64,000 nucleotides of DNA from Tidjanibacter sp. (lineage in GTDB: Bacteria; Bacteroidota; Bacteroidia; Bacteroidales; Rikenellaceae): the NCBI GenBank assembly GCA_017936605.1, contig JAGBFH010000022.1:916-64915 (forward strand). The letters run 5' to 3'. The position numbers were made by a program, and so were the translations under genes. The notes under the pieces were generated by a model. That model did no database searches. It was not told where the DNA came from and worked only from the letters and a program-made list of their open reading frames with translations. Of this stretch, positions 5,221 through 61,718 are shown one piece after another. Position 1 is the first letter of the stretch, and each line of letters starts with the position of its first letter.

Positions 5221-6660
5221 TTACCACAGCAGTGCGTCGATGGCGATGCCGAAAGTCAGGGGGCGTTGGTAGCCCGAGTGGCGGGTGGAGAGGCCACCGG
5301 AGTGGGCCGAGGCGGGAGCGGGGGCCGCTGCCACACCATTAGCCGCAGCCACACCCTCGGGGCAGGCCTCAATAGGAGGGATGCGCGTCAGGATGTAGTC
5401 GGTGCGGATGTAGTTGTAGTCGGCATAGAGCCTGAGGCCCAGGTTGTCGGCCACCACATACCTGAGCGAGAGGCCCACGGTGGCTGTGAGGTGCTCGGTA
5501 TTGTCGTGCTCGATGGTTGCCACCTCGCGGCCGTAGTCGTCAATGAGACTGTTCTTGAGGTAGTGGTTGCGCGAGGTGCCCACAAGGGCCTTGGCACCCA
5601 GATGGAGCCTCTCCCCAAGCGGGTGGTTGTAGTAGATACCGCCCATCACCGAGGTGCTGTTCAGCGGCTTGGGCTCGCTCACGCTTGCACCCTCCACCAC
5701 GCCGCGCTCCACAAGGTCGGCATAGCGCCCCACCTTCAAGAGGCCGCCCACACCCACCGAGGGGGTGAAGAACCAGGCGCCCTCCACACTGAAGCCAATG
5801 CTCGAGGGGGCCAGTCGTTCGTAGCGGTCGGCATCGTAGAGCAGCGCATTGTGGGCTATGCCCACGCCCACAAACGAGGGATTGCGCCCTATGCGCACAG
5901 GCTCCCACTCATCGCTTGGCAGGATGATGCCTCGCGAGCCGAGAATCTTGTCGGTTATCCAGTAGCCGAGCTCGGTGGAGAGTATGCCCACACCCGCACC
6001 CACCACTATATCACTGAGCCAGTGGCGGTTGTTGAGCGAGCGAGAGATGCCTGTGACGGTTGCCAGCGAGTAGCCCGCAACACTCCACCACGGGCTGAGG
6101 GTGGTGCCATACTCCTTGTGGAGAATGGTGGCCGCCGTGAAGGCCATAGCCGTATGGCCCGAGGGGAAGGAGTTGTAGGTGGAGCCGTCGGGTCGGAGCC
6201 TGCCGAGGCCATATTTTACAGCATAGACGGTCGAGAGCATCAGTCCCGCCGAGAGGCCGTTGGAGAGCGCCAGTCGCTCCCACGAGCTGCGCCCCTCAAC
6301 GCCACAGAGCTTCAGACCATAGGTCAATGCCAGTGGCGAGAACTGAAGATAGTCGTCGTAGTGGTAGCGGAACGAGGGGAGATAGTCGGTGCGCAGCTCT
6401 CGGGTCTGCAGGTCGGCTGCCGAGAGCACCACACCTGCACCCACAAGCCCTGCACCCATCTGTACGGTACGCAGCCCCCAGAATGTGTGGGGTCGCTCGG
6501 GAGTGGGGAGCGCGGGGAGAGTTGTGAGTGAGGAGGGCTCACCCACACCGTAGGTGCCTACGGTGCGCTCCAGCGCTCTCCTACTCCACTCCTCACCCTC
6601 AAGGGCCCACACTTGCCCTACACAGAGCAGTGCTATAATTATTGTTGTCAGTTTTTTCAT
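5221..6660 (-). CDS. PAP2 phosphatase with C-terminal outer-membrane beta-barrel-like domain
   Basis: Signal peptide; KxxxGRLRPD, SFPSGHT, SRxxxxRHWLSD motifs; C-terminus of alternating beta strands ending IDALLW. Confidence 0.8.
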   Translation of the reverse strand: MKKLTTIIIALLCVGQVWALEGEEWSRRALERTVGTYGVGEPSSLTTLPALPTPERPHTFWGLRTVQMGAGLVGAGVVLSAADLQTRELRTDYLPSFRYHYDDYLQFSPLALTYGLKLCGVEGRSSWERLALSNGLSAGLMLSTVYAVKYGLGRLRPDGSTYNSFPSGHTAMAFTAATILHKEYGTTLSPWWSVAGYSLATVTGISRSLNNRHWLSDIVVGAGVGILSTELGYWITDKILGSRGIILPSDEWEPVRIGRNPSFVGVGIAHNALLYDADRYERLAPSSIGFSVEGAWFFTPSVGVGGLLKVGRYADLVERGVVEGASVSEPKPLNSTSVMGGIYYNHPLGERLHLGAKALVGTSRNHYLKNSLIDDYGREVATIEHDNTEHLTATVGLSLRYVVADNLGLRLYADYNYIRTDYILTRIPPIEACPEGVAAANGVAAAPAPASAHSGGLSTRHSGYQRPLTFGIAIDALLW

Positions 6661-6674
6661 AGTTATTTTCATTC

Positions 6675-6812: not shown

Positions 6813-7499
6813 TCAACGAATGGAGTTCATACGGATACTCGCCTTCACAAAGGCCAGGGCCCTCACCTTCTCGATTTCGATATCCTTGTCGGCGTGGTGG
6901 GGATTCTGGCTCACGAGCTTTATGCACCCCGGGCGCTCGGACTTCTGGATGTACTTGACGGTCACATACTCCTCGCCCTCGAGGTCAATCGATAGGAGGT
7001 ACATATCGCCCCAGAAGATGTTGCTCCAGTCGTTCATCTGCTTGTAGAGCACAATATCGCCGCTCTTTAGGAGGGGGTACATACTGTCGCCCACAACATA
7101 AATCGCGCCATCGCACTTGGGCAGATTGGGGATGTGGATGTAGTCTATGGGCTGCACCTTCGTGGGGTCCATAAAGAGGGGCACAAGGCCCGCCGTACCC
7201 TCCATATTGTAGAGTGGAACGCTCTGCAAGGGCACAGTGTTGTCGGTGCGCTTGGTGAACTTCTGCCACTGCTCCTTGGGACAGTTGAACATCTCGCCCT
7301 TGCCGGTCTCGAGCCAGTCGGGATTGACATTCAAATCTTGAACAAGGATATTCTTGTTTCTCTCCGAGAGGGCAGCCTTGCCTGTCTCAATCATCGAGAG
7401 GGCACTCTTGCCCACTCCGAGCAGGGCAGCGAACTGCTCACCCGTCATTTCCAAATCTTTGCGAATTTTCTTTACGCGTACTCCCTTATTGTCAGCCAT
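6813..7499 (-). CDS. CI/LexA-like repressor: XRE HTH plus S24 autopeptidase
   Basis: HTH 'MTGEQFAALLGVGKSALSMIETG'; Ala-Gly site TAGL; GDSMYP catalytic Ser; VTVKY catalytic Lys. Confidence 0.9.
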   Translation of the reverse strand: MADNKGVRVKKIRKDLEMTGEQFAALLGVGKSALSMIETGKAALSERNKNILVQDLNVNPDWLETGKGEMFNCPKEQWQKFTKRTDNTVPLQSVPLYNMEGTAGLVPLFMDPTKVQPIDYIHIPNLPKCDGAIYVVGDSMYPLLKSGDIVLYKQMNDWSNIFWGDMYLLSIDLEGEEYVTVKYIQKSERPGCIKLVSQNPHHADKDIEIEKVRALAFVKASIRMNSIR

Positions 7500-7544: not shown

Positions 7545-7559
7545 TTCAATTATTGAACA
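7545..7559. promoter_or_regulatory. Candidate repressor operator, copy 1
   Basis: Palindrome TTCAAT-T-ATTGAA(CA) abutting the + strand -7 element in the cI/terminase divergent region. Confidence 0.6.
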
Positions 7560-7604
7560 TATATTTGCACTGCAAAGTTAAGAAATTTATTTCTATTATA
7601 CAAA
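7560..7604. promoter_or_regulatory. Overlapping face-to-face promoters for the terminase unit (+) and cI (-)
   Basis: + strand TATATTTG at 7560-7567; - strand TAACTTTG at 7573-7580 with TTTG at 7601-7604 (20-nt spacing). Confidence 0.65.
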
Positions 7605-7623: not shown

Positions 7624-8013
7624 ATGAAAAACACACCAGCAACCCCACAGCGACTGTTCGGTTTGGTGCCCAACGCCACCCATCCCGAGCAGGCAGAGAT
7701 TAGTTTCACCCCAACTCTCTACGCCGAGGTGCTCGAGTCGCTCTTGGAGCAGATTGCGGGCCTCAGCTACTTCAACGGCCGCATCTCAACCACCCACGAG
7801 GGCTTCAGTTCGGTGCTCACCGCCACACTCATCATCTACCACGACGACGAGGGGGACCTCCAAAGCCCCGTCAGGGACTTTGTGCCCATCTGGTGGGATA
7901 TGGAGAGTTTTCGTGACGATGAGTCGTCACCCCTTGCCCGCCCCGTCGGCAATGATTTCTCGCTCGCCCTGCTGCGCAAACTGCTCCGCGAGGGCGAACT
8001 ACCGCTGGATTAG
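7624..8013 (+). CDS. Hypothetical protein, first gene of the terminase transcription unit
   Basis: 129 aa, host-like codon usage, AACT-ATG start context; contains 'VPIWWD' and 'NDFS' segments. Confidence 0.7.
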   Translation: MKNTPATPQRLFGLVPNATHPEQAEISFTPTLYAEVLESLLEQIAGLSYFNGRISTTHEGFSSVLTATLIIYHDDEGDLQSPVRDFVPIWWDMESFRDDESSPLARPVGNDFSLALLRKLLREGELPLD

Positions 8014-8038
8014 TCGACCGACGACCGACTACCTACAA

Positions 8039-8146
8039 TAAGGTCCTTAGGGTCTTTAAGGTCCTTAAGGTCCTTAAAATCCTTTTTGCCCTTTTCGCCC
8101 TTTTCGCCCTTTTCGCCCTTTCTCAACTCTTAACCCTCAACCCTCA
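8039..8146. repeat. 9-bp and 7-bp period mosaic repeat between the orphan gene and terminase
   Basis: (TAAGGTCCT)n, (CGCCCTTTT)n, (AACCCTC)n. Confidence 0.85.
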
Positions 8147-8149
8147 ACT

Positions 8150-10207
8150 ATGACTTTTCTCGACTTTACCTCGCGGATGTTTCCTTCGTTCCGCACCACA
8201 CCATTCCACGCCCGCTACTATGCACTCCTTGAGGCCTTTGCCCAGGGGCGCATAAGGCGACTTATGATTACCATTCCGCCCCAGCACGGCAAATCGCTCG
8301 GCTCATCGGTGGCACTCCCCGCCTACCTCTTGGGCCTCAACCCCGACCTCCACATAGCCATTGCCTCCTATAGCGCCTCGCTGGCCCAGAAGTTCAACAA
8401 GCGTGTGCAGCGTCTTATAGACACTCCCGCCTATGCCGACATCTTCCCCGACACCACAATCAAGGCCGCAGGACGCTCGGGTGCCTACCAGCGCACAGCC
8501 GAGCTCACGGAGGTTGTGGGCCACACGGGCGACCTTGTGGCTGTGGGCAGAGAGGGCTCCCTGACTGGCAACCCTGTGGATGTGCTCATAATTGACGACC
8601 TCTACAAGGACGCAATGGAGGCCAACTCTCCCACCGTCAGGGAGAACTGCTGGGACTGGTACACCTCCGTTGTGCGCACCCGAGAGCACAACCTCTCGCG
8701 CGAACTTATTGTCTTCACCCGATGGCACAAGGAGGACCTGATTGGCCGCATCTACCAGAAAGAGAGGGTCGTGGAGCTCAAGAACTGGAGCGACATCGAC
8801 ACCCTCCCCGACGGCTGTTGGCTCCACCTGAACCTCGAGGCCCTCAAGACTACCCCCGCCACCGAGCTCGACCCTCGCGGGGTGGGCGAGCCACTCTGGG
8901 GCGAGCGCCACTCGGCCGAGCTGCTGAAGGAGAAACAGAGGCTCGACACGCTCCAATTCGAGGCTATGTATCAGGGGCGCCCGTCGGATGCTGCCGGCCT
9001 GCTCTATGGCGACAATTTTCAGACCTACTCGGCCCTGCCTGCTAAAAACGAAATCATCAGAAGGGCCAACTACACCGACACAGCCGATATGGGCGACGAC
9101 TACCTATGCTCGGTCTGCTACTCGGTGGGCACCGACGGCAACATCTACATCGAGGATGTGGTCTACTCGCGCGAGAAGATGGAGATAACCGAGCCTCTGG
9201 TGGCCGAGATGCTCACCCGCTGTGGCACTCCCGAGGCGACCATCGAGAGCAACAATGGCGGTCGCGGCTTTGCCCGCAACATCCAGCGCTTAGTACCCAA
9301 GTGCTCCATCGGGTGGTTCCACCAGAGCGCCAACAAGGAGTCGCGCATCCTTTCTAACGCCTCCACGGTGTTGCGTACGGTGCGTATGCCGGTGGACTGG
9401 AAGGAGCGGTGGGGCGATATGGCGGCCCACCTTATGGGATACAACCGCCGCTTCCGCACCAATCGCTGGCACGATGCAGCCGATGTGCTGACGGGCATCA
9501 TCGAGAGCGAGTGCAACCGCACCATTCGCAAACGCATCTACGGCACCTCCTTCTCCATACGCAACTATGTGCAGCCCAAGGAGCCCACCCCCACTCTCTC
9601 CTCGCGCCGCCTTACGGAGGCAGATTTTGAGGCTATGGCCGAGCGGTTGGGGGTGGAAAAGGCGGCCCTCAAGGCGGTTGTGGAGGTGGAGTGCTCCTCG
9701 CGTGGCGGCTTCCTCTTAGACGGCAGGCCACGCATACTCTTCGAGGGCCACATCTTCTGGCAACAGCTCCGCAAGAGGGGTTTCAGTCCCGAGAGTCTGC
9801 AAAAGGCCCACCCGTCAATCATCTATCCCAAGTGGGTGAGGACCCACTATCGTGGTGGTGCGGGCGAGTGGGAGCGCTTCTCGGAGGCGGCAGCCATCTC
9901 GCCCGAGGCGGCGGTGGAGTCGGCCAGCTGGGGTCTGTTCCAGATTATGGGCTTCCACTGGAGCACCTGCGGATGCGGCTCGGTGGAGGAGTTCAGAGAG
10001 CGTATGGAGAGGAGCGAGAGGGAGCAAATGGCCTTGGCAATGAATTTTCTTGAAAAAACGGGCATTGCAAAGTGGCTCAAAACAAAAGATTGGTGTAACT
10101 TTGCACTCAGATACAACGGCAGCGGCTACAAGGCCAATCGCTATGACCAGAAGCTCGCCGCCGCCTACAACAAGTTCAAACAACAAGAACAACACGCAAA
10201 GGAGTAG
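8150..10207 (+). CDS. Phage terminase large subunit fused to an N-acetylmuramidase (DUF3380-type endolysin)
   Basis: Walker A IPPQHGKS, Walker B LIIDD, TRWHKEDLIG, nuclease DTAD..GDDY, IESNNGG, HDAADV; from aa 488 LTEADF..LGVEKAALKAVVEVE..GGF...ILFEGHIF...SASWGLFQIMGFH...FALRYNGSGY. Confidence 0.9.
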   Translation: MTFLDFTSRMFPSFRTTPFHARYYALLEAFAQGRIRRLMITIPPQHGKSLGSSVALPAYLLGLNPDLHIAIASYSASLAQKFNKRVQRLIDTPAYADIFPDTTIKAAGRSGAYQRTAELTEVVGHTGDLVAVGREGSLTGNPVDVLIIDDLYKDAMEANSPTVRENCWDWYTSVVRTREHNLSRELIVFTRWHKEDLIGRIYQKERVVELKNWSDIDTLPDGCWLHLNLEALKTTPATELDPRGVGEPLWGERHSAELLKEKQRLDTLQFEAMYQGRPSDAAGLLYGDNFQTYSALPAKNEIIRRANYTDTADMGDDYLCSVCYSVGTDGNIYIEDVVYSREKMEITEPLVAEMLTRCGTPEATIESNNGGRGFARNIQRLVPKCSIGWFHQSANKESRILSNASTVLRTVRMPVDWKERWGDMAAHLMGYNRRFRTNRWHDAADVLTGIIESECNRTIRKRIYGTSFSIRNYVQPKEPTPTLSSRRLTEADFEAMAERLGVEKAALKAVVEVECSSRGGFLLDGRPRILFEGHIFWQQLRKRGFSPESLQKAHPSIIYPKWVRTHYRGGAGEWERFSEAAAISPEAAVESASWGLFQIMGFHWSTCGCGSVEEFRERMERSEREQMALAMNFLEKTGIAKWLKTKDWCNFALRYNGSGYKANRYDQKLAAAYNKFKQQEQHAKE

Positions 10208-10231: not shown

Positions 10232-12046
10232 ATGAAGACCCTCGAACTCCTCGCCCCCGCCAAGGACCTCGCCACCGCCCGTGCCGCCATCGACTCGGGT
10301 GCCGATGCGGTCTATATGGGCGGGCCGCGCCTGGGCGCACGAGCCGCCGCCACCAACTCTATGGAGGACATCCGCCAGGCGGCACGCTATGCCCACCTCT
10401 ACGGCGCAAGGCTCTATATGACAATGAACACCATCGTCTATGAGCACGAGTTGGAGGAGGCCCGCAAAATAGCCCAAGAGGCCATCGAGGCGGGTGTGGA
10501 TGCGCTCATCGTTCAGGATATGGCCTACTGCCGTATGGGGCTCGAGGGTGCCGAACTCCACGCCTCCACTCAGATGTACAACGCCTCGCCCGAGAGGGTC
10601 CGTTTCCTCGGTCAGGCGGGCTTTTCGCGAATAGTCCTCGAGAGGGGGCTTACGGCCGACCAGATGAGGGAGATATGCAGTGCCACCGACAAGGAGATTG
10701 AGGTCTTCATTCACGGGGCCATCTGCGTATGTGGCAGTGGCAGGTGTTATATGAGCCGTTCGCTCTCCCACCGCAGTGGCAATCGTGGCGAGTGCAGTCA
10801 GCCTTGCCGCCAGCGCTACGACCTGAGGGATGGCAGCGGCAAAATCATACGCAAAGGGCTACACCTCCTGTCGGTCAAAGACCTCGACCTTTCGGCCCAC
10901 ATTGGTGAACTCATAGATATGGGCGTGGTGTCGTTCAAGATTGAGGGCCGCCTGAAGGATGAGGCCTATGTGAGAAACATCACAGCCCACTACAGCCGTC
11001 TGCTCGACGAGGCCATAGCCGCTCGCAAGTGTTGCCGCAGGGCCTCCCGAGGGCGTGTGAGCCTCGACTTTAGCCCCTCGCCAGCCAAGACCTTCACCCG
11101 CAGTGGTGGCGACTACATCTTCCGCGGAAAGCGTGCGGGCCTCGCCTCGTTTGACACCCCCAAGGCTATGGGCGAACGACTCGGCAGGGTGACAAAGATA
11201 GTGGGGCGCAGTTTTCTGCTCGACAAAAAGAGTGACCTCGCCTCGGGCGACGGCATCTGCTTCATAGCCGCGGGCGAACTCGTGGGCACAAACATCAACT
11301 CAGCCGAGGCCGGCGGCCGCATAACCCCCAACAGGATGGAGGGCATTGCGGTGGGCACCGACATCTATCGCAACTACCACAAGGCCTTCTATGACACCCT
11401 CGGTGCAACTCGCACACGCCGTTCGATGCCCGTTTGGGCCACGCTCTCGACCGACAAAAAAGGCTGCACGCTCTCGCTACGCAATGAGGAGGGGACCATT
11501 GTGGAGGCCACCACAGACACCCACTTTGAGCCCGCAACCAAAGGCGAGATGGCCATAGGCTCCATAACCTCTTCGCTCCGCAAGAGCGGCTCATCGCCCT
11601 TCGATGTGGTGGATGTGGAGTTCCAGTTCGATGGGCCCGTGCCCTTCATCCCCACAGGAGCACTCAACGCCCTGCGCCGAGAGGCCCTCGAGAGGCTCGA
11701 GGAGCTGTTGCGCAACAGTCAGCCGCCGAAGAATATCGCCCCCGAGGACCCCACAGTTCCCTATTCCCTACGCACCATAGGTGGCGACCACAATGTTGCC
11801 AACTCGCTCGCCCGCCGATTCTACACCGACCACGGCGTGGAACGCATAGACGAGGGCTACGACCTGCTGCCCGACCTGGAGGGTGTGGAGGTTATGCGCA
11901 CCCCCTACTGCATACGCCGCGAGATTGGCCAGTGTCTGAAGCAGGGCTCACGACTCAAGGAGCCCCTCACACTCATCCACGGCACCGAGGAGTACCGCCT
12001 GCGCTTCGACTGCAAGGAGTGCTCAATGCACATTGAGAAAATGTAA
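10232..12046 (+). CDS. U32 family protein with DUF3656 domain (RlhA-like)
   Basis: ELLAPA, GADAVYMGG, HASTQ, HGAICVCGSGRCYMS, NRGECSQPCR, SFKIEGR. Confidence 0.88.
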   Translation: MKTLELLAPAKDLATARAAIDSGADAVYMGGPRLGARAAATNSMEDIRQAARYAHLYGARLYMTMNTIVYEHELEEARKIAQEAIEAGVDALIVQDMAYCRMGLEGAELHASTQMYNASPERVRFLGQAGFSRIVLERGLTADQMREICSATDKEIEVFIHGAICVCGSGRCYMSRSLSHRSGNRGECSQPCRQRYDLRDGSGKIIRKGLHLLSVKDLDLSAHIGELIDMGVVSFKIEGRLKDEAYVRNITAHYSRLLDEAIAARKCCRRASRGRVSLDFSPSPAKTFTRSGGDYIFRGKRAGLASFDTPKAMGERLGRVTKIVGRSFLLDKKSDLASGDGICFIAAGELVGTNINSAEAGGRITPNRMEGIAVGTDIYRNYHKAFYDTLGATRTRRSMPVWATLSTDKKGCTLSLRNEEGTIVEATTDTHFEPATKGEMAIGSITSSLRKSGSSPFDVVDVEFQFDGPVPFIPTGALNALRREALERLEELLRNSQPPKNIAPEDPTVPYSLRTIGGDHNVANSLARRFYTDHGVERIDEGYDLLPDLEGVEVMRTPYCIRREIGQCLKQGSRLKEPLTLIHGTEEYRLRFDCKECSMHIEKM

Positions 12047-52105: not shown

Positions 52106-52522
52106 CTACTCCGCCCTTCCAAAAAGGTTCTTTAGGCGACGGCCGAAGAGGAGCATAACATCCACAAAACGCCTTTCGCCCGTAACCACCGAGGCGTTCT
52201 CGAGATAGCTCCAGAACTCCACACCACAGACAAAGCCTGTGAAGAGGTTGGCAAGTCGCAGTTCGACAAAGGGTGAGGCGATGCCGTCGAGCAGCCAGGC
52301 CAGAACGATGCCCGCCATCACGAACGACAGTTTGCGGATAGTTTTCCAAGCCTTGCGGCTCTCGAAGCGCCAAGTGCGCCCCTCGGTGCGGGCCCTGCGA
52401 CGGTCTGCCAGAACTCCCGTGAGGAAGTCCACCGCCACGAACGCCATCGCACACACAAGCAAAGGCTCTACGGGTGCAAAGAGTGAGAGCACCCCCGTAA
52501 CGATTCCAGTCAAATACTTCAT
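52106..52522 (-). CDS. Phage holin (family 4-like)
   Basis: TM helices; VDFLTGV and EFWSYLEN motifs. Confidence 0.8.
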   Translation of the reverse strand: MKYLTGIVTGVLSLFAPVEPLLVCAMAFVAVDFLTGVLADRRRARTEGRTWRFESRKAWKTIRKLSFVMAGIVLAWLLDGIASPFVELRLANLFTGFVCGVEFWSYLENASVVTGERRFVDVMLLFGRRLKNLFGRAE

Positions 52523-53055: not shown

Positions 53056-54300
53056 TTAGTCTACATTTTTGAGTCCATACTTGGTTACCTGTGCCACATA
53101 GTACTGCTCCTCGGGGTTTGTGGGGTCGTAGTCGAGGCCGTCGGCCTTGCGGGCCTCCCAAACACGCATATAGAGGGGCTTGGAGCGCGAGGGCGGGCGG
53201 TTGACAATCTCCAGTCGTGAGCCATCCTCACCCAGGATGGTGCTCACCAACGAGCGTATGGGCTCCATAAGCTCCTCCTGCTCGCCGAGGATGACCGTAT
53301 TGAGGGCCACCTCCCACTCGTGCAGGATGCGCTCCGAGGAGAAACCGCCGGCATAGTCGAGGCCGCTGAGGCTGCGGAACCACGAGTGGGCAATGACGAT
53401 GTCACCCGTAGCCTGGTCGTGGAGCTCGCGCCAGTCGCCCTCGTTGGTGGAGGTGATGGGGATGAAGCGCGAATTGTCGCCGTCGTCGCACTCCTTGACC
53501 ATAAACATCACCTGACCGGGCTTGCCCGAGAACTTGCGCTGTGCTGCGGCGGCCAGCTTCTCGGCCTCCTCCTCACTCTCCACGCCACCATCGAGGAGCA
53601 TCACACCCGAGAGCTGAAAGGAGTTATCCAGACGCGAGATGTTCCAGTTGTCGGTCTTGTAGGCGATGGTCGACACATTCATACCTGCAATGTAGGGCGG
53701 CACGCCATAGTGGGAGAACATAGGCTCGTAGTCCTTGTAGTGAATCATCGTGTGGAGGTTGCCATCGGCCCCCTGCTCGAAGAGCGGATAGAGTGGCACG
53801 CTAACCGCCTCGGAGCGCTGATAGCGGGTCCAGTCGTGGTGGAGCACCACGCGGCCTGAATCCTTGGCCAGTCGGCAACGCGAGGCATCCTGATGGAAGA
53901 GTGCCAGAAAGGAGTGGGCCGAGTCGGTCACTACCTCCACGAAAGCGTTGCCAAAGAGGCACTTATCGAAGGCCAGCTTATTGAGCACCTGACGCAACGA
54001 CTCGCCCTGAGAGTTGGCCTCCTCCACGAAGGCCTTGGTGCGGATGGCCTCATCGGGCAGGCTGAAGCCCGCACCCGAAATGTAGTCGGCCTTGTCGTTG
54101 ATGATGCGGCGGTGGGTTGTCGAGCAGCGCGACAGAAGCGAGAGGGCCAGGGGAAAGAGGTTGTCGCTACCCCAGTTCCAGACCTCGCCCTGCTTTGCGC
54201 CGGAGCCACCCACCTGAATGGGCAACCCGAGGCCCCCTATGGAGCTCTCGGCTCGAGGGGAGAAGATTTTGGGGGTATAGTTGATTTTTGATTTTTCCAT
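53056..54300 (-). CDS. Phage portal protein
   Basis: WGSDNLFP, STTHRRIINDKADYISG, FGNAFVEV, YGVPPY, NSFQLSGV, IVIAHSW. Confidence 0.8.
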   Translation of the reverse strand: MEKSKINYTPKIFSPRAESSIGGLGLPIQVGGSGAKQGEVWNWGSDNLFPLALSLLSRCSTTHRRIINDKADYISGAGFSLPDEAIRTKAFVEEANSQGESLRQVLNKLAFDKCLFGNAFVEVVTDSAHSFLALFHQDASRCRLAKDSGRVVLHHDWTRYQRSEAVSVPLYPLFEQGADGNLHTMIHYKDYEPMFSHYGVPPYIAGMNVSTIAYKTDNWNISRLDNSFQLSGVMLLDGGVESEEEAEKLAAAAQRKFSGKPGQVMFMVKECDDGDNSRFIPITSTNEGDWRELHDQATGDIVIAHSWFRSLSGLDYAGGFSSERILHEWEVALNTVILGEQEELMEPIRSLVSTILGEDGSRLEIVNRPPSRSKPLYMRVWEARKADGLDYDPTNPEEQYYVAQVTKYGLKNVD

Positions 54301-54331
54301 TTTTCGCTTGAAGGTTAATGGGTTAAAGATG

Positions 54332-54360
54332 AAAAAGGGGCCCGAAACGAGAGGCCCCTT
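54332..54360 (-). terminator. Internal terminator after the capsid and putative major tail genes
   Basis: On - strand AAGGGGCC-N10-GGCCCCTT followed by TTT. Confidence 0.7.
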
Positions 54361-54374
54361 AGGATTCTTTTGCG

Positions 54375-54863
54375 CTACAGTTCGAGGGGACTAAAGGGGG
54401 TCGCACTCCAACCATCCTTCGAGCCGAGGAGCATCCTCACCGTAGGGTTGTCGCTACGCTTTGTGGCGCTGTCGCCCTCGGCCTCCAGCAGCCTCAGGGG
54501 ATAATCGGCACCACCGCGGGGCGAGCACCCAACAACAAAACTCCTACCCGAGGTGAGAGTGAGTACGGCGACCACACCCTGACGGCTGAGGGCTCTTACC
54601 TGTCCGAGCAACTCGGTCCTTAGACCACTCACGACCATCTCGAGGTGGTGCTCCACCCCACCCTCGGAGTCTATGCGCTCGAGATAGCGGGCTCCGCCAT
54701 CGGCAAAATAGACCTCCAGAGGGGTCGCCTCGGGCGCCAGACTACAGTTCGTAAAGCCCGCCGAGGAGCGGTAGCCCCCGAAGCTCACATCGTCCACCTT
54801 GTAGAGGACCACCGAGCGCAAGCCCCCGAAATTACGAGAGCACGATGCAGAGGAGCCTTCCAT
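54375..54863 (-). CDS. Putative major tail (tube) protein
   Basis: 162 aa right after the capsid gene; N-terminal CSRNFGGLRSVVLY pattern typical of Bacteroidetes siphovirus tube-like proteins. Confidence 0.5.
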   Translation of the reverse strand: MEGSSASCSRNFGGLRSVVLYKVDDVSFGGYRSSAGFTNCSLAPEATPLEVYFADGGARYLERIDSEGGVEHHLEMVVSGLRTELLGQVRALSRQGVVAVLTLTSGRSFVVGCSPRGGADYPLRLLEAEGDSATKRSDNPTVRMLLGSKDGWSATPFSPLEL

Positions 54864-54865
54864 AA

Positions 54866-56089
54866 CTACTCAATCGGGAACAACATCTCGCCAGCCTTGA
54901 CAAGAGTCAGTCTATACATCGTTGCGCCCTCCACCGAGAACTCAATCTCATTGTGACCCTCATAGAGGCACAGGGACTCACCTTCAATGATGGGCTCGTA
55001 GTTGTCGTCATAGGCAAAGGCCCAAATCTCTTCTGCCCAGGGCTCAGGGGTGTTGCAGTTGCACTCAATCTTCAGCACATCGCCATCAAGAGAGCTCTCC
55101 AGATGGCCAAGGGGAGCACCCACAGCAAAGGAGAGAAGCTCGGGCAGGAGGTAGTCGCAACCGGCCATAAAGATTGCCCTCTGGCGGTTCTCCATAAGGT
55201 CGGGGTTGTACCACATACGCACCTCGGTGCCGGGCATATCGTTGGTGTTGACAGCCAGGGCGAGGTTGCGGCGGTCGGTGAGCAGTGCGAAGGAGCCGGG
55301 CAGGTCGAGGGCCTGCTCCTTGTAGCCGTTGAGCTGCACATCTACCACGGGGATGCCGCGATAGAAGAGCCCGTCACGGCCCTGCTGCTTGGCCAGATAG
55401 GCGGCCTCAATGGCCACACCATCGAGCTCCTCCTCGTAGGCATTGTAGACATCGGTGGTCACAAAGAATGCCAACTGGCCCTCCGAGCGCAAGGAGCGCA
55501 ACTCCTCGGTGGCGTTATCCCAGAGCCTCTTCAGAACGGCCTCGGCCCAACCGCTCTTGCCTTCATTCACATAGGCAAAGCGGCGAATCTCCTCCTCGTT
55601 GCAGTCGTAGACAATCTGCTTGACGAAGCCGTCGAAGGTGTCCAATACGCCATTGTCACGATCTCGGTTGCCATACCACATTGTGGCCCTCACGCTCTCG
55701 GCAATGGAGGCTCTGAAGAGCGAGGTCTCGGCCTCCTCGAGCTCGGTGCCCGAGAGGTCGTCGAGGTTCACATCCGCACGACCTGTGATGAGCTCATAGA
55801 CGGTCGAGAAGTAGTTGTCGGCCGCATAGGCCATCTCGGCCTTGACCTTGTGGAGCTTCATCTCCTTCTGGAACTTGTCGGCAGGCGCACCGCCGCTCCA
55901 GCCACTGGAGGTGAAGCGATTGAGGATGTTGCCGTCGCGCTTCCAGAAGTGGAGCGTGGTGGGCACGGGCATATTGTACATCACTTTGATGCCGAGCTGC
56001 TCGGCGTTGCTACCGGTGAGCATAGGGCGGAAAAAGATGTTGTCGAGCCTCTGTCCCGAGTAGGTCTTGATACTTTCGATTTTACTCAT
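54866..56089 (-). CDS. Major capsid protein with ~80-aa C-terminal extension
   Basis: Follows the ClpP-type protease; capsid-like segments MWYGNR..TFDGFVKQI, FFVTTDVYNAYEE, YRGIPVV, NLALAVNT, RAIFMAG. Confidence 0.7.
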   Translation of the reverse strand: MSKIESIKTYSGQRLDNIFFRPMLTGSNAEQLGIKVMYNMPVPTTLHFWKRDGNILNRFTSSGWSGGAPADKFQKEMKLHKVKAEMAYAADNYFSTVYELITGRADVNLDDLSGTELEEAETSLFRASIAESVRATMWYGNRDRDNGVLDTFDGFVKQIVYDCNEEEIRRFAYVNEGKSGWAEAVLKRLWDNATEELRSLRSEGQLAFFVTTDVYNAYEEELDGVAIEAAYLAKQQGRDGLFYRGIPVVDVQLNGYKEQALDLPGSFALLTDRRNLALAVNTNDMPGTEVRMWYNPDLMENRQRAIFMAGCDYLLPELLSFAVGAPLGHLESSLDGDVLKIECNCNTPEPWAEEIWAFAYDDNYEPIIEGESLCLYEGHNEIEFSVEGATMYRLTLVKAGEMLFPIE

Positions 56090-56124
56090 TGTTGTCTTGT
56101 TGTTTTTTTAGTGATTAATTGGTT

Positions 56125-56400
56125 GTTTTTGGGGGATTGCAAGGGGGGTAAGGGGTTGCAAAGGGTTGTAGGGGAATTTAGGGAGTTTAGGGAGTTTAGG
56201 GAGTTTAAGGTCCTTAAGGTCTTTAAGGTCTTTAAGGTCCTTAAGGTCCTTAGGGTCCTTAAGGAAAACTCCCATTTCTCTCATTTCTCTCATTTCTCCC
56301 ATCTCTCCCATCTCTCCCATTTCTCCCATTTCTCCCATTTCTCCCATTTCTCCCATTTTCTGCCGAGGCAAAACCCTCTACAATCAACCCTCAACTCCTC
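56125..56400. repeat. Host 9-mer mosaic inside the phage-like operon
   Basis: (TTAGGGAGT)n, (TAAGGTCCT)n, (TTCTCCCAT)n between the protease and capsid genes. Confidence 0.9.
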
Positions 56401-57352
56401 TTCTTATGGCCTCTCGGAGGCTCTCCATATCGGCTGCATAGGCTCCGCTGTTGCCCGAGAGTTTGGGCACACCGTTGGGTGCGGGGTCGTCGCACTCCTT
56501 CACGCGGGTGGGCTCGGCCGTATGGAGTCTCGAGGGTGGCATTGGGGGGCTCTGCTGCTCACTCTTCTCGGCCTGCGAAGGGGCCACTGAGGGACCACCG
56601 TTGGCGGAGGTGGCATTGACGGGTAGGGGGTTGTTCTTTGCAAGGCCCACACGCTTTAGGACCCTACCCCACGCCTCCGAAAGACGCTCAGCGAGGGGCT
56701 TGGGAGGTAGGGGTGTGAGCCCCAGGAGGGCAATCTGGCCACGAGCGTCGTCGGTGATGGGCGAGGAGGCTATGATGCTGTCCACCAATCCCGCCTCCAG
56801 ACACTCCTCGGGCGAGAGCCACACACCCTTGCCACCATTGCGGTTCATCAGCTGGCGATACTCCTCGGGGGTGCGACCCGCAGCAAGGGCATATATCTCC
56901 GCCAGACGCTCGTCGCTCTTGTCGAGAAGCTCTTTGGTGGCGGCCAGTGAGTGGCTGTTGCCCTCCACGGCGCTCTCGCAGCAGTGTATGAGGTAGAGTG
57001 CGTTGGCCGAGATTTCGCGGCACCCCTTGGAGGCGGCCTGAGCGATGATGGTTGCGGCCGAGGCCACATAGCCGTAGCAGCGGGTGATGACCTCCACGCC
57101 CAGCTCGCGTGCCGCATCGTAGATGAGTAGTGCATCGGCCAGACAGCCGCCCGTCGAGCGGATATTGAGCACCAGTCGGTCCACACCGCCACTCTGGCGA
57201 ATCTCCTCCAGCGCACTCTCGAAGCGCTCGTAGGTGGCCACGCGGCCATCTTCGGTGCCGAACTGTTCCACCTCGGGGGTGCCGAGTATGCCGTCGATGT
57301 CGATGGTGGCGACCCTCAGCGAGGTGGCGATTTTGTTGTTTGATTCTTCCAT
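56384..57352 (-). CDS. ClpP-type prohead protease with C-terminal scaffold-like tail
   Basis: IDIDGILG, LNIRSTGG, GYVASAATII (catalytic Ser), YLIH (His), WLSPEECLEAGLVDSI; Pro-rich tail. Confidence 0.88.
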   Translation of the reverse strand: MEESNNKIATSLRVATIDIDGILGTPEVEQFGTEDGRVATYERFESALEEIRQSGGVDRLVLNIRSTGGCLADALLIYDAARELGVEVITRCYGYVASAATIIAQAASKGCREISANALYLIHCCESAVEGNSHSLAATKELLDKSDERLAEIYALAAGRTPEEYRQLMNRNGGKGVWLSPEECLEAGLVDSIIASSPITDDARGQIALLGLTPLPPKPLAERLSEAWGRVLKRVGLAKNNPLPVNATSANGGPSVAPSQAEKSEQQSPPMPPSRLHTAEPTRVKECDDPAPNGVPKLSGNSGAYAADMESLREAIRRGVEG

Positions 57353-61702: not shown

Positions 61703-61718
61703 GTTCAATTTCTGAACA
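61703..61718. promoter_or_regulatory. Candidate repressor operator, copy 2
   Basis: GTTCA-ATTTC-TGAAC(A); 13/15 identical to 7545-7559; overlaps the predicted transcription start. Confidence 0.6.

Follow-up and report, generated by a model that had tools for sequence, protein, structure and literature searches.

The window analysed here, a stretch of 64,000 nucleotides (nt) from Tidjanibacter sp. (family Rikenellaceae; contig JAGBFH010000022.1, positions 916 to 64,915), contains on its plus strand, at 8150..10207, an open reading frame (ORF) of 685 amino acids (aa) in which a terminase large subunit (TerL) is followed in frame by an N-acetylmuramidase of the DUF3380 family. As judged by sequence comparison, this ORF is a genuine fusion of single origin, maintained by purifying selection on both of its halves. 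The explanation that best accounts for the whole, to which we assign a probability of roughly 0.7, is that the TerL of an inherited, phage-derived gene set was fused once by a chromosomal inversion to a muramidase and was kept in this form by selection.

An uninterrupted frame combining TerL and a DUF3380 muramidase had been proposed in an earlier sequence-only reading of this DNA, and the ORF listing of the window (no internal stop codon), Pfam and PHROGs agree on it. Pfam assigns Terminase_6N to aa 39-209, a weak T7-type RNaseH-like nuclease to aa 310-412 and Muramidase (PF11860) to aa 504-677 of the fused protein, and PHROGs places TerL (phrog_38) over aa 3-460 and endolysin (phrog_1224/2860) over aa 484-683. 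The start position of the ORF is conserved as ATG or TTG, and its first nine codons are likewise conserved. The out-of-frame ATG near the junction is also present as described and opens an ORF of 50 aa (9567-9719). The proposed domain boundaries hold only in part: the muramidase indeed begins at aa 488, but TerL does not end at about aa 471. Since stand-alone TerL orthologues terminate in ...RNYVxPKE(N)*, the peptide NYVQPKE belongs to TerL, whose native end is at aa 476, and Met1 of the stand-alone muramidase (MVSExDF) aligns to about aa 487-488 of the fusion. From these orthologue ends and starts, the TerL portion with its native C-terminal tail ending in PKE, which is delimited also by Pfam, PHROGs, motifs and folds, comprises aa 1-476 (8150..9577, plus strand), the new linker PTPTLSSRR(L), recognized by comparison with unfused orthologues, aa 477-487 (9578..9610, plus strand), and the DUF3380/PF11860 N-acetylmuramidase domain aa 488-685 (9611..10207 including the stop codon, plus strand). 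The junction peptide of the fused protein is NYVQPKEPTPTLSSR.

The linker begins exactly at the site of the ancestral stop codon (the TerL of an unfused relative, genome G166, ends in YPKE*) and stands in place of the ancestral TerL stop and the promoter, leader and start of the muramidase. Among fused genomes it is 5-27 aa long, shows no conserved sequence and consists of GC-rich Pro codons. An AlphaFold2 model built on a 57-sequence alignment has a mean predicted local distance difference test score (pLDDT) of 83 with two confident domains, and the pLDDT falls below 50 over aa 458-484, that is, over the TerL tail and the linker. Its predicted template modelling score of 0.47 is as expected for a pair of domains without a fixed mutual orientation.

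Both halves look active, being of full length and having intact catalytic motifs and matching folds in sequence and model comparisons. The TerL half carries the ATPase motifs Walker A (PPQHGKS, aa 43-49), Walker B (DDLYKDA, aa 149-155) and the coupling motif VFTRWH (aa 188-193), as well as the RNaseH-like nuclease motifs YTDTAD.GDD (aa 308-317), ESNNGGRGFAR (aa 366-376) and NRWHD..D (aa 438-445); in 120 homologues, an invariance of at least 98% is seen for the ATPase motifs and for the three clusters of acidic nuclease residues. PF03237 matches with 32.9 bits (cutoff 22) and phrog_38 with an E value of 1.6e-84, and the PF22530 nuclease match stays under its cutoff (21.4 versus 27). With Foldseek, the two-domain TerL fold is recovered with a probability of 1.00 against 8dgc_E, 4idh, 3cpe, 5oee and 4bil; the N-terminal part matches the terminases of PhiV-1, Sf6, T4, D6E and T7, and the nuclease part the nuclease domains of SPP1, Sf6 and RB49. 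A PDB sequence search with TerL returned only spurious TAL-effector repeats, where the fold search gave terminases instead.

The muramidase half covers positions 2-175 of the 175 positions of the PF11860 profile (223.4 bits versus a cutoff of 22.3, E value 3e-66) and has PDB sequence matches to 7q4s, 5nm7 and 7rum with E values of 1e-35 to 1e-42. Foldseek superimposes the C-terminal part on Pae87 and AP3gp15 with target-normalised template modelling scores of 0.87-0.90 and root mean square deviations of 1.9-2.7 Å. The catalytic glutamate is E514 (codon 9689-9691) in VVEVECSS; it is kept in 31 of 32 homologues and aligns to Glu101 of AP3gp15, the single catalytic residue of that enzyme, whose E101A mutant loses 99.4% of activity (PMC5674055).

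Distribution of the fusion and selection on its halves

A search of 5.8 billion proteins yielded about 29 protein clusters of 668-703 aa and 77-99% identity that contain both Pfam domains, and a census of the genus found the uninterrupted fusion in 17 of 47 species-level genomes; assemblies of ENA, Logan and NCBI all contributed loci with this fused gene. The fused genomes form a monophyletic group with support values of 99/96 to 100/99. Within it, Nei-Gojobori ratios of nonsynonymous to synonymous divergence (omega) are 0.05-0.15 for TerL and 0.10-0.21 for the muramidase, at synonymous divergences (dS) of 0.8-1.2. Because the frame is open in 17 species-level genomes at a dS of about 1, it is not open by chance, and because omega of the muramidase is similar in unfused lineages, the constraint on this half did not relax. 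The fused copy is the sole DUF3380 gene of the fused genomes.

These data bear directly on the possibility that the ORF is an artefact of assembly or sequencing at the junction, or else a decaying gene that recently lost a stop codon in a prophage remnant. That its flanks are host genes could be held in favour of this explanation, but the same open frame occurs in 17 species-level assemblies of different sources, omega is far below 1 for both halves at a dS of about 1, the catalytic motifs are all invariant, and TerL is single-copy and family-wide. We give this explanation hardly any credence and regard it as effectively refuted already. Among the options left by the sequence-only reading, the real fusion is thus supported, and an assembly error and a recent stop mutation are both rejected, by the occurrence of the fusion in 17 independent species assemblies and about 29 protein clusters, by its single clade and by purifying selection on both domains. 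The coupling of packaging to lysis stoichiometry that was suggested along with the real fusion found no support. That reading had also pointed to close relatives as the place where a stop codon or frameshift at the junction might be seen, and the frame of the fused relatives is uninterrupted.

One genome, G154, shows two identical-scoring fused copies (G154:C17:1659-3698 and G154:C26:28699-30738); the gene may have been duplicated, or the bin (5% contamination) may contain two strains.

Origin of the fusion by inversion

Two sets of genes meet at the fusion. On the TerL side these are a small ORF, which is always located 5' of TerL, a repressor gene (Rep), which adjoins the small ORF and TerL in every locus examined, and a PAP2-family gene; on the muramidase (Mur) side these are genes for a U32-family peptidase, a methyltransferase (MT) and an HD protein, which are always located 3' of the muramidase, fused or not. 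Three arrangements were found. In G166, the two blocks are unlinked, with Mur>U32>MT>HD and TerL<small<Rep>PAP2 lying on different contigs. In L016, L003, G126, G120, G138 and others, the blocks are linked as HD<MT<U32<Mur<PAP2<Rep< >small>TerL, with the muramidase as a separate gene of 190-194 aa. The fused genomes show PAP2<Rep< >small>TerL-Mur>U32>MT>HD. The second and third arrangements differ by inversion of the PAP2-Rep-small-TerL block, and such an inversion of four genes would have brought the 3' end of TerL to the 5' end of the muramidase, as the gene orders indicate. In agreement with this prediction, the flank beyond TerL in the unfused G138 matches the flank beyond PAP2 in the fused L018, in the same outward orientation.

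Whether orthologues are fused or merely adjacent had been put forward earlier as a check, and it is informative: next to the 17 fused genomes, TerL and muramidase are adjacent but unfused in none of the 47 genomes of the genus. A simple loss of the stop codon between adjacent genes was therefore rejected, as no adjacent-unfused state exists among them. In a tree of TerL and Rep, genomes without the muramidase branch first, followed by G166, then by L016, and then by the other unfused genomes together with the fused clade, which is monophyletic (99/96). A topology with all unfused genomes in one clade is rejected (approximately unbiased test, p=0.03). The tree order and this rejection indicate that the fusion is derived and arose once. 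Flanking synteny in genus genomes without the muramidase failed to polarise the change, because only the Rep-small-TerL triad is common to them and the flanks differ.

In the window, the PAP2-family gene (5221..6672, minus strand) lies downstream of the repressor gene and forms one end of the inverted block. The sub-clade that bears the muramidase has it after the repressor gene, as does G166, and the other members of the genus lack this link. The two genes overlap by 1-4 nt in L009, L016 and L020 (G166), which suggests co-transcription of the repressor gene with one for a membrane phosphatase-like protein. The small conserved ORF (7624..8013, plus strand, 129 aa) is the first gene of the TerL unit; it has no Pfam or PHROG match, and its motif LTATLIIY..VPVWWE..NDFSF is kept in relatives. 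The U32-family peptidase gene (10232..12046, plus strand) is the first of the host U32-MT-HD genes.

Proposed transcriptional control and function of the fused protein

The repressor gene (6813..7499, minus strand) is divergent from the TerL unit and encodes a cI/LexA-like protein of 228 aa with HTH_3 and Peptidase_S24 domains, as assigned by Pfam and PHROGs. The intergenic region between the repressor gene and the small ORF contains an operator-like palindrome, TTCAATTATTGAAC (TTCAA-N3-TTGAA; 7545..7558), directly abutted by a -7 promoter box, TATATTTG (TAnnTTTG; 7560..7567, plus strand), identified from sequence; TAnnTTTG is the consensus of the Bacteroidetes-type -7 element. The palindrome is found at the same position in 13 of 17 such intergenic regions (it is degenerate in L013 and L014 and diverged in L017), and the box is kept as TATCTTTG, TATATTTG or TACCTTTG in relatives. 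With up to one mismatch, the window holds four operator matches versus 0.71 expected. A second exact copy, TTCAATTTCTGAAC (61704..61717), is located upstream of the operon for the structural proteins, so that the same palindrome precedes both this operon and the TerL unit; a third, TTCAAATCTTGAAC, with one mismatch, lies within the repressor coding region (7330-7343).

The linked but unfused muramidase genes have a TAnnTTTG box at -24 of the ATG and an A-rich leader in four of five loci (not in L016), and in none of these five loci was an operator palindrome found upstream of the muramidase. The -7 box and the A-rich leader of the stand-alone gene are gone in the fusions, and with the muramidase's own elements removed, the operator-controlled TerL promoter would be the only remaining route for its expression. 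No plus-strand terminator-like site was found between 7400 and 12200.

Three further observations concern the non-coding signals of the locus. An exact operator-type palindrome, TTCAAAATTTGAA, is located about 299 nt upstream of the unlinked muramidase in L019 (G166:C18), which could be due to chance or could reflect an older regulatory link. Within the muramidase codons for KDWC(N/T)FA, the window contains at 10096-10103 a -7-box-like TA(A/C)CTTTG, TAACTTTG, and exactly one such element occurs 99-136 nt upstream of the U32 start in seven of seven fused loci (the window, L001, L004-L007 and L018); it may serve as an internal promoter that allows the housekeeping genes U32-MT-HD to be expressed when the TerL promoter is repressed, or may simply follow from the amino acid motif. 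The spacer that separates TerL from the small ORF (8020-8149) consists of short tandem words (GGTCCTTAA-like, CCCTTTTCG four times and AACCCTCAAC twice), and elsewhere the same spacer has different tandem words (TTAGACG, TTTTGAA, CTCAACT).

The preferred explanation can be put as a sequence of steps. TerL would belong, as large terminase, to an old, phage-derived set of genes for heads, packaging and lysis that is passed on vertically in Rikenellaceae and lies at two chromosomal sites, both presumably served by the operator of a single repressor. In basal lineages of the genus, the muramidase is still encoded on its own, as the leading gene of the U32-methyltransferase-HD operon and behind a promoter-like box that belongs to it. 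The inversion would then have exchanged the TerL stop and the promoter, leader and ATG of the muramidase for a Pro-rich, flexible linker of 5-27 aa. Upon relief of the repressor, a single polypeptide would be produced from the repressor-controlled promoter; its TerL part would serve as packaging ATPase-nuclease, and the tethered, signal-less muramidase would be retained in the cytoplasm. Once the membrane had been opened by the holin encoded in the structural operon, it would cut the wall and release particles or the contents of the cell. The fusion would thus have mainly a regulatory consequence, in that the lysin was shifted from its own promoter into the regulon of the repressor. The fusion itself probably began as a tolerated by-product of the inversion and not as an engineered coupling.

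Alternatively, the gene might be fused and its products still act as separate enzymes, released by cleavage of the linker through the ClpP-type head protease or a host protease, or produced from an internal start. The TerL tail and linker are predicted to be disordered (aa 458-484) and thus protease-accessible, a head-maturation protease is encoded in the system, and release would avoid steric problems at the portal, on which TerL C-terminal tails are thought to dock. However, the linker has neither a conserved sequence nor a conserved length that would suit a cleavage site, L018 lacks any Met between linker and catalytic Glu, and the fusions no longer have the -7 box and the A-rich leader that precede the stand-alone gene. 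We therefore consider separate enzymes unlikely, and the internal start suggested earlier is disfavoured in particular, as there is no conserved internal Met and leader and box have disappeared.

A more far-reaching view is that the fusion is adaptive. Being the only endolysin tethered to a packaging motor, which is present in five copies per procapsid, and standing under a damage-sensitive repressor, the muramidase would link wall destruction physically and temporally to packaging in a GTA-like (gene transfer agent-like) particle system. We regard this as an improbable reading; if true, the protein would represent a natural single-polypeptide packaging-and-lysis enzyme with no known phage counterpart.

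The phage-derived gene set

Exactly one TerL homologue, with 53-65% identity, is present in 130 of 151 genomes of the family (84 of 92 high-quality genomes). A single copy of the portal gene occurs in 123 of the 151, and the genera without it are those without TerL. TerL is likewise inherited along with the protease and capsid-like genes. Together with an omega of 0.05-0.15, these matching absences are the pattern of a GTA-like system. A contiguous prophage was not found: the flanks are host genes (PAP2, U32, methyltransferase, HD), and TerL is single-copy and family-wide with variable flanks. The TerL-muramidase gene is not a prophage gene, and what had initially been viewed as a phage packaging gene is instead the family-wide, vertically inherited orphan TerL of a split, domesticated phage-like system.

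The second part of this system in the window is the structural operon, encoded on the minus strand (53056..57352), with genes for the portal (53056-54300), a virion structural protein (54866-56089) and a ClpP-type head-maturation protease (56384-57352). At its end lies a gene for a holin of the Phage_holin_4_1 family (PF05105; 138 aa; 52106..52522, minus strand; 39.7 bits versus a cutoff of 22.2). The distance between TerL and portal is 3-4 kb in two genera (g11, g17), and the genes are split elsewhere; in L017 (404-9410; 68% TerL identity), only about 2.5 kb separate Rep-small-TerL from genes homologous to those for the 793-aa and 330-aa proteins in the structural operon of the window. These distances suggest that the two loci of the window were once one unit. 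A second holin-like ORF (G000:C10:15952-16323), 40% identical to the holin at 52106-52522, is found on another contig of the window's own genome.

The holin is present in 17 of 17 fused and 11 of 11 linked-unfused genomes of the genus, and a partnership between holin and muramidase is plausible, though it is not exclusive. Neither in its fused nor in its stand-alone form does the muramidase have a signal peptide or a membrane anchor region, and for this reason it cannot reach the wall without a membrane lesion. A scan of ORFs and Pfam domains detected no holin near 8150-10207, and thus no adjacent holin-endolysin cassette.

The muramidase might also have nothing to do with the phage-like system. 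In this view, the host had recruited it as a wall enzyme into the U32 operon, the inversion joined it to TerL by accident, and the fusion persists only because the join does no harm and the two independent functions are both still required. The Mur-U32-MT-HD block of G166 is unlinked to TerL, unfused copies lack the operator and are preceded by a promoter-like box of their own, the phage-like system of most of the family includes no DUF3380 gene at all, and the presence of the holin does not track that of the muramidase. On the other hand, an enzyme without signal peptide or anchor could not get to the wall unless the membrane was lesioned, its closest relatives are phage endolysins, all 28 of 28 fused or linked-unfused muramidase-bearing genomes have the holin, and the linked-unfused muramidase is already within about 2.5 kb of the repressor gene. 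We consider such a lack of connection with the phage-like system quite unlikely.

Several points nevertheless weigh against our preferred explanation, the single fusion by inversion within an inherited phage-derived set. The tree used for polarity was built on TerL and Rep, which are genes from the inverted block itself, and the node separating G166 from L016 has a support of only 89/81. Prior to the fusion the muramidase sat with housekeeping genes and without the operator, and it may originally have had a function outside the phage-like system. The holin is located 42 kb from the muramidase and not adjacent to it; it also occurs in at least eight species without the muramidase, and G166 has the muramidase and no holin match. 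Finally, an appendage of 200 aa on the presumed portal-docking tail of TerL might hinder packaging.

Significance of the fusion

To our knowledge, terminases and endolysins, which are among the best-studied phage proteins, are always separate. Among 1.84 billion (1.84e9) protein cluster representatives, only the clade's own cluster spans both domains, and a match over 80% or more of the fused protein occurs in no record of the 50,697 phage records. Literature searches found neither a natural TerL-endolysin fusion nor a description of the Rikenellaceae system. Recurrent TerL-lysin fusions elsewhere were considered and rejected, as long TerL relatives have inteins, homing endonucleases or unannotated extensions in place of lysins; in the relatives P0126, P0133 and P0208, for example, Hint/intein and LAGLIDADG homing-endonuclease domains break up or lengthen the terminase. 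The architecture is thus unprecedented and its origin unusually clear, although it may be a tolerated by-product of rearrangement and not a new mechanism.

The fusion can be traced stepwise from unlinked genes through linked, divergent genes to the fusing inversion, and it provides a clean example of how a chromosomal rearrangement makes a new multidomain protein and rewires its regulation. At least 17 species have diverged with an additional 200 aa at the C-terminus of TerL, and this tolerance bears on models of TerL tail docking on the portal. In addition, the fusion marks a sub-clade of a family-wide domesticated phage system of gut Rikenellaceae in which the lysis step would be readable through a single gene, and such a readout would help to test for particle production by the system.

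Comparison with known systems

Among phages, siphoviruses of Bacteroides fragilis (B40-8 and the vB_BfrS_23 group) have the most similar TerLs, with 46-50% identity over aa 3-465 (about 49% for the B40-8-like phages) and the same ATPase and nuclease motifs. In contrast to these, the TerL described here is chromosomal, single-copy, family-wide and located outside a prophage, and it carries a C-terminal muramidase. The latter is 40-46% identical to the DUF3380 endolysins Pae87 of Pseudomonas phage JG004 (7q4s), AP3gp15 of Burkholderia phage AP3 (5nm7) and LysT84 (7rum). Like Pae87, it has no separate peptidoglycan-binding domain; however, DUF3380 endolysins are free lysins or carry an N-terminal wall-binding domain, whereas the enzyme studied here is the C-terminal domain of a terminase and has no adjacent holin.

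With respect to its control, the repressor resembles the non-canonical phage-like LexA repressors of Bacteroidetes, which recognize the motifs GGA-N5-TCC or CTAA-N5-TTAG (PMC8565304), in its HTH_3 and S24 domains and in its putative binding of a short-spacer dyad close to the promoter. It differs from them in its motif (TTCAA-N3-TTGAA) and in that the targets seen are phage-like genes; a terminase is not mentioned in that study (PMC8565304).

As a whole, the gene set can be compared with RcGTA of Rhodobacter capsulatus, whose endolysin and holin are encoded outside the head-tail cluster (PMC5026251). Both consist of vertically inherited, phage-derived genes at several chromosomal sites, under cellular-type control and with lysis genes apart from the structural genes. 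In contrast to RcGTA, which is under GafA/CtrA control, the system of Rikenellaceae belongs to the Bacteroidota, has a cI-like S24 repressor, and combines TerL and lysin in one polypeptide.

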